IMG/VR virus record: IMGVR_UViG_2880372215_000012
Source: a virus
Lineage: Duplodnaviria; Heunggongvirae; Uroviricota; Caudoviricetes
Length of the DNA stretch: 38,479 nucleotides
Reading direction: 5' to 3' (one strand)
Made by a program: the position numbers and the translations under genes. The notes under the pieces are model-generated. The model searched no databases, was not told the origin of the DNA, and saw only the letters and a program-made list of their open reading frames with translations. Shown here in pieces: positions 33,687 through 35,418 of this stretch. Position 1 is the stretch's first letter, and the number at the start of each line of letters is the position of its first letter.

Positions 33687-33865
33687 AGCATCCTCACGAT
33701 AATATCCGCGTAGGCACGATCACTTTCGTCTACTCCGTTACGAAGCGAGGCTGGGTATTTCCCGGCCTTTCTGTTATCCGAAATCCGCTGAAAGCCCAGC
33801 GGCTGGCTGAGGAGATAAATAATAAACGGGAGGCGATATGCACAAAGCATCTCCTGTTGAGTTAA
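33683..33865 (+). CDS. Lambda orf60a homologue
   Basis: [64 protein letters not shown] overlap with the exo stop as in lambda. Confidence 0.7.
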
Positions 33866-33968
33866 GAACGAGTATTGAGATGGCACATAGCCTTGCTCAA
33901 ATTGGAGTCAGGTTTGTGCCAATACCTGAACCGCCCCGGGTTTCCTGGAGAGTGTTTTATCTGTGAAC

Positions 33969-34859
33969 TCAGGCTGCCAGATCATCGTTTCCGATGGAAG
34001 CATAATAAGCTTTTTCTGCTTCTGCCGGAGGAGTATGGCCCAGCCTTCCCAGCAATCGTCGATTGTTATACCAGTCCACCCACGTTAGTGTGGCCAGTTC
34101 CACTTCTGCACGGTTTTTCCAGCTCTTACGGTGTATTACCTCCGCTTTGTAAAGACCATTGATGCTCTCAGCCATCGCGTTGTCATACGAGTCGCCTGTA
34201 CTCCCTGTTGATGCCAGTAATCCGGCTTCTTTTAGTCGCTCCGTATAGGCCAGTGACACATACTGAGAGCCTTTATCGCTGTGATGGATGGTGCCAGACG
34301 GACGACGGGCCCACAACGCCTGCTCCAGCGCATCCAGCACGAATGTCGTTTCCATAGACGATGAGACCCGCCACCCCACGATGTATCCGGCAAACACATC
34401 AATGATAAACGCCACATAGACGAAGCCCTGCCATGTGCTGACGTAAGTAAAATCAGCCACCCACAGCTGGTCAGGTCGTTCTGCCACGAACTGACGGTTT
34501 ACGCGGTCGCCTGCGGCAACGGCTTTCCGGCTGATGGTCGTACGGACCTTTTTACCCCGGAGAACACCGGCAAGTCCCATAACCGCCATGAGACGTGCCA
34601 CTGTACATCTGGCCACCCTGATTCCTTCCCGTAACAACTGACGCCAGACTTTACGCACACCGTACACCTGATGATTTTCATCGTATACGCGCTGTATCTC
34701 TCTCTTCAGCCAGTCGTCGTGCTGCGCACGGGCACTGCGTTTATCCGGATGATGTCGCTGTTGCTGACAATGGTAATACGTTGACGGGGCAATATGCAGT
34801 TCGCTGCATACCGGTCCGACCCCGTACTGCTCACGCAGCTTATCCAGCAGTGGCATCAT
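33969..34859 (-). CDS. IS629-like transposase OrfB (DDE integrase domain), normally made as an OrfAB fusion by -1 frameshift
   Basis: 296 aa, ..[32 protein letters not shown].. ..HHSDKGSQY.. ..[16 protein letters not shown].. Confidence 0.9.
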
Positions 34860-35182
34860 TTTTTCCAGAGGCGGTCGAACTCCGCCTTCGCAAAATAAGC
34901 GGAAGCCTGGCGAAGGATATCGTTACTGCGGCGCAGTTCACGATTTTCACGTTCCAGCTCTTTCAGACGCTGACGTTCAGCGCTGGTGAGCCCACCATCA
35001 CCGCCCCCGGTATCCCGCTCATGCTGGCGAACCCAGACACGCAGAGTCTCCGGCGTACAGCCAATCTTTGGGGCAATGGAACAAATTGCCGCCCACTGTG
35101 AGTCATATTCATCCTGACTTTCCAGAACCATACGAATCGCCCGCTGACGGACTTCGGGGGAAAAACGAGTATTTTTAGTCAT
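34856..35182 (-). CDS. IS629-like transposase OrfA (HTH plus leucine zipper)
   Basis: 108 aa, [57 protein letters not shown].. Confidence 0.9.
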
Positions 35183-35418
35183 CCTGTTTACCTCTTTCTC
35201 AGGGAGTTTAGTCTCCAGGATTTCCGGGGCGGTTCAACCAGTAGAAACAGACGAAGAATTTCATACGTTAGCCACATCCCTTTCGCAAAAGCTGGAAATG
35301 ATGGTGGCGAAAGCAGAAGCAGATGAGAGAGACCTGGTATGACAACCACTGAATGCATTTTTCTGGCAGCGGGCTTCATATTCTGTGTGCTTATGCTTGC
35401 CGACATGGGACTTGTTCA

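Follow-up and report, generated by a model that had tools for sequence, protein, structure and literature searches.

An IS1203-type isoform of IS629 in the orf63 homologue of a defective lambda-like prophage of Escherichia coli O157:H7

In an O157:H7 lineage of Escherichia coli, a full-length IS629 element of the IS1203 isoform has very probably entered the orf63/DUF1382 gene, at codon 30, of a defective lambda-like prophage that lies next to ybhC, as a recent and lineage-specific event whose phenotypic effect is probably nil. The prophage is represented by IMG/VR virus record IMGVR_UViG_2880372215_000012, a stretch of 38,479 nucleotides that is referred to here as the window and that corresponds to coordinates 638323 down to 599843 of O157 strain AR-0428. 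Its limits are the end of nleH1-1 on one side and that of int on the other, the prophage being situated between ybhB/bioA and ybhC. On the basis of its position beside ybhC, we take this prophage to be Sp3 / CP-933K of O157:H7. The insertion is already known, as it is annotated in RefSeq, and it is an ordinary event that involves no new element, mechanism or gene function.

Structure and identity of the element

The element is enclosed by two ACC trinucleotides and its transposase genes run antisense to the early-left genes of the prophage (Table 1). Its extremities are those of the IS3 family, which is characterized by a length of 1.2-1.5 kb and imperfect inverted repeats with 5'-TG...CA-3' tips: at 1310 bp, it is bounded by 25-nt repeats that are 88% complementary, in which the initial 13 nt are perfect and the tips read TGAACC...GGTTCA. 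The flanking ACC/ACC duplication is likewise of the short type (3-4 bp) generated by this family, and target duplications of 3-4 bp have been reported for IS629 (PMC3271280). A composite structure built from a second IS copy was considered and rejected, as the IS ends occur once only in the whole window.

Table 1. Positions of the features discussed in the text, in window coordinates
Feature	Position	Strand	Remarks
nleH1-1	1-882	-	type III effector gene
nleC	1710-2729	-	type III effector gene
nleB2	2763-3743	-	type III effector gene
Portal gene	~20256-21837	-	annotated as two CDSs, 336 nt + 1125 nt, in AR-0428 and TR01
LpxR-family lipid A deacylase gene	29513-30472	+	moron
bet	32126-33009		first 37 codons missing
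exo, lambda-type, YqaJ domain	33006..33686		upstream of orf63 homologue
orf60a homologue, DUF1317	33677..33865	early-left strand	upstream of orf63 homologue
5' fragment of lambda orf63 (DUF1382) homologue	33838..33926	+	codons 1-29 + 2 nt of Pro30; DUF1382 1-30/60, 61.5 bits
Target-site duplication, copy 1	33924..33926		ACC, read from the sequence
Complete IS629 / IS1203-isoform element	33927..35236	-	1310 bp; 1310/1310 identity to annotated copies
IRR (right terminal inverted repeat, orfB end)	33927..33951		+ strand reads TGAACCGCCCCGGGTTTCCTGGAGA
orfB	33969..34859	-	296 aa; HTH_21 (PF13276) + rve integrase core (PF00665, 96.9 bits)
ALIL (apical loop-internal loop) pseudoknot region	34785..34901	-	RF01497, 121.5 bits (gathering 50), model 1-117/117
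orfA	34856..35182	-	108 aa; HTH_Tnp_1 DNA-binding protein (PF01527, 47.3 bits)
A6 slippery run	34859..34864	-	TGG AAA AAA TGA in orfA frame, at orfA stop
IRL (left terminal inverted repeat, orfA end)	35212..35236		22/25 match to IRR
Target-site duplication, copy 2	35237..35239		ACC, read from the sequence
3' fragment of orf63 homologue	35240..35342	+	last base of codon 30, codons 31-63, stop codon
27-aa hydrophobic ORF	35339-35422	+	MTTTECIFLAAGFIFCVLMLADMGLVQ
int	37413-38479		4-bp deletion, gap ~37473
Mapped IS629-type insertions, exo	33237-33261		3 insertions
Mapped IS629-type insertion, orf60a	33798		1 insertion
Mapped IS629-type insertion	33837		1 insertion
Mapped IS629-type insertions, orf63			4 insertions: that of the window; 14 bp downstream, AAG duplication; ~31 bp downstream, opposite orientation; near C-terminus, AGC
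Mapped IS629-type insertions, 80 bp past orf63 stop	35344-35393		5 insertions, two different IS subtypes at one nucleotide
Mapped IS629-type insertions, further downstream	35658-35876		4 insertions

Both transposase reading frames are open, and their products have the organization of IS3-family proteins, OrfA carrying a helix-turn-helix domain and OrfB an rve-type DDE core whose catalytic triad consists of D136, D195 and E231, with spacings of 59 and 36 residues. In common with the two-ORF elements of the family, the frame of orfB is shifted by -1 from that of orfA and the two overlap at ATGA; a conceptual OrfAB fusion, 404 aa long, matches the NCBIfam model NF033516, 'IS3 family transposase', with 366 bits (cut-off 160). 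The frameshift signal typical of the family, an A-run with a downstream RNA structure, is also predicted from the sequence of the overlap, where a -1 slip on the A6 run would lead into ATG ATG CCA of orfB and thereby fuse OrfA to OrfB. This run is preceded by G, leaving no canonical X_XXZ_ZZN heptamer, and -1 re-pairing is perfect for the A_AAA tetramer only; tetramers and heptamers are both among the frameshift motifs recognised by Sharma et al. (PMC4066793). The ALIL structure that is predicted, over the full length of the model, in the same region stimulates frameshifting in IS3411 and in no fewer than 27 further IS elements (PMC5009743). In RefSeq, an identical copy of the element is annotated with 'programmed frameshift' and an 'AL1L pseudoknot' feature. 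Judged by its sequence identity to many other copies, the copy in the window is apparently functional.

With respect to its identity, the element matches at 1310/1310 positions many E. coli copies that RefSeq labels 'IS3-like element IS1203 family transposase' and, equally, a copy that was named 'insertion sequence IS629' by the depositors of AP012535.1; it is also 99.8% identical to the IS629 of Stx2 phage 1717. Related copies occupy 31,355 places in 4,252 of the 5,426 complete E. coli genomes searched, and those in the phage collection fall into two classes of identity to the element, one at 99% or more and the other at ~95-96%. IS1203 has been treated as an isoform of IS629, the subtypes of which are 4-5% apart (Rump et al. 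2011, PMC3271280). Taken together with the annotation of the identical copies, this classification assigns the element to the IS1203-type isoform of IS629. The initial annotation had proposed an IS629-like, 1310-bp member of the IS3 family with intact OrfA and OrfB, terminal inverted repeats and a 3-bp ACC duplication, and each part of this description is upheld. The inverted repeats (22/25) and the flanking repeats are both present, the -1 frameshift motif that it had advised looking for at the orfA/orfB overlap is represented by the A6 run and a full-length ALIL, and the 'IS629-like' label is correct, being refined to the IS1203 isoform by the annotations of 100% identical copies.

The route by which the element is likely to have arrived can be outlined from what is established for the IS3 family, for which OrfAB frameshifting and a copy-out-paste-in pathway have been described (bioRxiv 10.1101/2023.06.07.543989). 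The OrfAB transposase would result from ribosomes shifting to the -1 frame at the A6 run, an event promoted by the ALIL pseudoknot, and the element would then be copied out as a circle. Pasting of this circle at a target whose strands are cut 3 bp apart would give rise to the ACC duplication.

The interrupted gene and the age of the insertion

The insertion point is codon 30 (Pro) of an orf63 homologue. When the two gene fragments are joined with one ACC removed (33838..33926 + 35240..35342), they give an uninterrupted ORF of 63 aa, and retention of both ACC copies places one additional Pro in the joined ORF. The restored product is identical to that of lambda orf63 (NP_040614) at 58/63 positions (92%), in an alignment free of gaps, and covers the Pfam family DUF1382 (PF07131) from 1-60/60 with 106.4 bits. 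In its present state, the 5' ORF reads into the IS and reaches a stop at 33966, so that the final 12 of its 42 aa are IS-encoded, and the 3' fragment is described by RefSeq in AR-0428 as 'DUF1382 family protein, missing N-terminus'. As on the lambda map, exo and orf60a (DUF1317) immediately precede the gene.

The proposal that a lambda orf63 homologue is interrupted is therefore confirmed by the identity to lambda and by the full-length DUF1382 match once the gene is restored, as is the claim that removal of the IS and one ACC restores the ORF exactly, the 63-aa frame being open throughout. Its description as an 'early-left' gene is sound in terms of synteny, but the part where lambda has its pL is missing from this prophage, in which bet is truncated at its 5' end and abuts ninE. 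The 27-aa hydrophobic ORF listed in Table 1 overlaps the orf63 stop by ATGA and is without annotation in RefSeq; several IS insertions of other genomes map inside it.

The site without the element was reconstructed as an 800-bp query, comprising 400 bp from each side and one ACC. Many O157:H7 chromosomes contain this query in one piece (800/800 identity), located at ~0.9 Mb, where it is annotated as exo, DUF1317, DUF1382 and a hypothetical protein, and it thus supplies the comparison with uninterrupted prophages that had been suggested at the outset. The empty site is present at 99% identity or more in 340 records and, at 97-99%, also in phage 434, lambda relatives and many Stx phages. Since the element is identical over 1310/1310 positions to other copies and a natural empty site exists at 800/800, chance is excluded.

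The filled site was sought with one query for each junction, composed of 200 bp of flank and 200 bp of IS. Amongst the 5,426 complete E. coli genomes, both junctions are recovered as single 100% pieces in only two, those of O157 strain AR-0428 (NZ_CP044145.1) and NCCP 15739 (NZ_CM167680.1), in both of which the IS and the divided DUF1382 pseudogene already have RefSeq annotations; no record of the phage collection gave a match to the junction. This occurrence bears on the suspicion that an assembler misplaced a multi-copy IS, a suspicion fed by the ~20 IS copies of the host genome (19-22 places per record) and by two C-runs whose lengths differ from both complete genomes and suggest that the assembly of the window is of lower quality. 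An artefact of this kind is scarcely conceivable, however, as the same junctions recur at 100% in two independent complete genomes and misplacement would not yield a clean, frame-restoring 3-bp duplication.

The prevalence of the empty site likewise speaks to the age of the insertion. Precise excision of IS629/IS1203v that depends on both the IS-excision enhancer (IEE) and the transposase has been documented in O157:H7 (bioRxiv 10.1101/2023.06.07.543989), and the element could in principle be an old one, ancestral to the Sp3-type prophages of O157:H7, from which it was removed in most strains by precise, IEE-promoted excision. Such a history would demand hundreds of independent precise excisions to account for 340 empty-site records against two filled genomes, and it is further opposed by the IS being identical to other copies and by the lack of mutual mismatches between the filled prophages in the stretch compared; it is accordingly considered very improbable.

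The surrounding DNA provides a further line of evidence in favour of a recent gain by transposition. The 12-kb left flank is matched at 100.0% in many O157:H7 strains, in one piece whose span in the records is 12,001 bases against 12,000 in the query, and in strain 9000 the empty site is contiguous with this match. The flanks also weigh heavily against import of an already interrupted segment, by homologous recombination, from an IS-bearing lambdoid prophage. Donors for such an exchange would not be lacking, in that near-identical early-left regions occur in several lambdoid prophages of O157 genomes (up to 5 places per genome) and IS629 insertions are present in the same region of other prophages. 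Despite this, both flanks are Sp3-type, as judged by the 100% empty site and the 100.0% left flank, whilst other prophages differ by 2-6%, and the junction searches of E. coli genomes and phages found no other prophage with an IS at the same position, which makes an origin by import a most improbable one.

Occupancy of the site in 2/5,426 genomes, the exact empty site, the 12-kb flank match and an IS identical to other copies together support a recent, lineage-specific gain, as read from these sequence comparisons. Rump et al. 2011 (PMC3271280) list the prophages that carry IS629 in four reference O157:H7 genomes, and the lack of Sp3 among them is consistent with the site being rare and strain-specific. 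The initial annotation had also called the insertion comparatively recent, arguing from the clean 3-bp duplication; the date survives on the grounds just given, but the argument does not, as a duplication of this length has almost no dating power.

Decay of the host prophage and insertions elsewhere in the region

The prophage that received the element is defective. Its bet gene lacks the first 37 codons, so that the alignment to lambda begins only at lambda 32698, and a gap of ~25-30 bp separates it from ninE, which is on the opposite strand. The entire gam-to-ninD segment of lambda, including the immunity and replication genes, is absent between bet and ninE, and both early promoters, pL included, were presumably lost with it. 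Strains TR01 and CEC13004 have the same bet/ninE junction, indicating that this deletion predates the IS insertion. In comparison with the intact int of O157:H7 strain TR01, that of the window has a 4-bp deletion in an AATGG region, and the annotations of AR-0428 and NCCP 15739 treat the gene as a frameshifted pseudogene. The division of the portal gene into two annotated CDSs suggests that it is disrupted as well, a further sign of prophage decay.

The direct result of the insertion is truncation of a 63-aa protein in an operon already deprived of its promoter region. As this operon had been beheaded beforehand, the disruption of orf63 is unlikely to matter and its phenotypic effect is probably none. 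The insertion can be regarded as one more decay step in an already defective, effector-carrying prophage, and the new copy would add one portable homology and one transposase source to a genome with ~20 copies. It is of little wider consequence, as it is well documented that IS629 insertions give rise to small structural polymorphisms in O157:H7. Strain trees have been based on whether known sites carry IS629 or not (PMC3271280), and the orf63 site could mark the AR-0428 / NCCP 15739 lineage.

Several other features of the prophage were recorded in the course of this analysis. The type III effector genes nleH1-1, nleC and nleB2 lie beyond the tail-fibre genes at the left end of the window, which begins exactly at the end of nleH1-1, with nleD just outside. 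The gene for the LpxR-family lipid A deacylase is located between the nin region and Q and adjoins the remnant of a second antiterminator gene. The C-runs at ~29130, within a ylcG-like gene, and at ~29234 are each 1 base shorter than in AR-0428, NCCP 15739 and TR01, and these differences are probably homopolymer sequencing errors in the assembly of the window, which they mark as a third record beside the two complete genomes with the insertion.

Insertions of the same type are not restricted to this prophage. At least 17 others are distributed over the exo-to-TraR/DksA stretch in lambdoid prophages of other E. coli genomes; they comprise several IS subtypes, 95-100% identical to the element of the window, and both orientations. 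With the orf63 insertion of the window included, 18 loci were mapped (Table 1), by searches that cover only ~700 bp around the query and favour nearby sites. The initial junction queries could detect insertions of the same orientation only, and a synthetic junction of the opposite orientation was then used. A rule of single orientation was rejected, opposite-orientation insertions being found in NE122/28RC1, TUM9812 and FWSEC0006.

One flank has been lost in 6 of the 18 mapped insertions (loci L006, L009, L013, L020, L021 and L022), where it is replaced by unrelated DNA belonging to int, ykgJ, methyltransferase/ninE, terminase or quuD/ompC. These losses are IS-adjacent deletions or rearrangements by which large parts of prophages were removed, and they lend direct comparative support to the earlier, reasonable remark that the intact IS is a potential source of further rearrangement.

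Nine of the insertions fall between mid-orf63 and 50 bp past the orf63 stop, and at one nucleotide NE 1169-1 and RM8352 carry different IS subtypes. It might be supposed from this pattern that the ~160-bp stretch from mid-orf63 to just past the stop is a regional hot spot for IS629-type elements in lambdoid prophages, as it contains, besides the insertion of the window, at least eight others of several subtypes and in both orientations. A post-hoc binomial test on a fixed window gave 0.01, but clustering is not significant by a scan statistic (p ~0.06-0.21) applied to searches that are biased towards the query site. Given this result and the restriction of the searches to ~700 bp around the query, a hot spot is considered unlikely and is not claimed. 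A target consensus was sought among 17 mapped sites and none was found, in agreement with PMC3271280.

Relationship to known elements and genes

The closest relatives of the element are the IS629/IS1203 copies of O157:H7 and other STEC, with which it shares its length of 1310 bp, the orfA/orfB layout, the ALIL, the 25-nt inverted repeats and the 3-bp duplication. A preference for prophage DNA is also common to both (PMC3271280), 62% of IS629 copies being situated in prophages according to the same study, and location is the sole difference between this copy and those elsewhere. The IS629-type insertions of HM670, EC96, CEC13004, NE 1169-1 and the exo site of TW14359/EC4115 are of the same family and length, have 3-bp duplications and occupy the same early-left stretch; they differ in lying at other nucleotide positions, some of them in the opposite orientation, and in belonging to several subtypes, and are independent events. 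A likeness to IS3411 and the ALIL group of the IS3 family (Mazauric et al. 2008, cited in PMC5009743) is evident at the level of a model match, the Rfam ALIL model being matched over its full length, including the slippery region. With regard to the target, the restored ORF corresponds to lambda orf63 within the exo-orf60a-orf63 segment, being of equal length, 92% identical and flanked by equal neighbours. In contrast to lambda, the gene is here split by the IS, in an operon that lacks everything upstream of bet codon 38.
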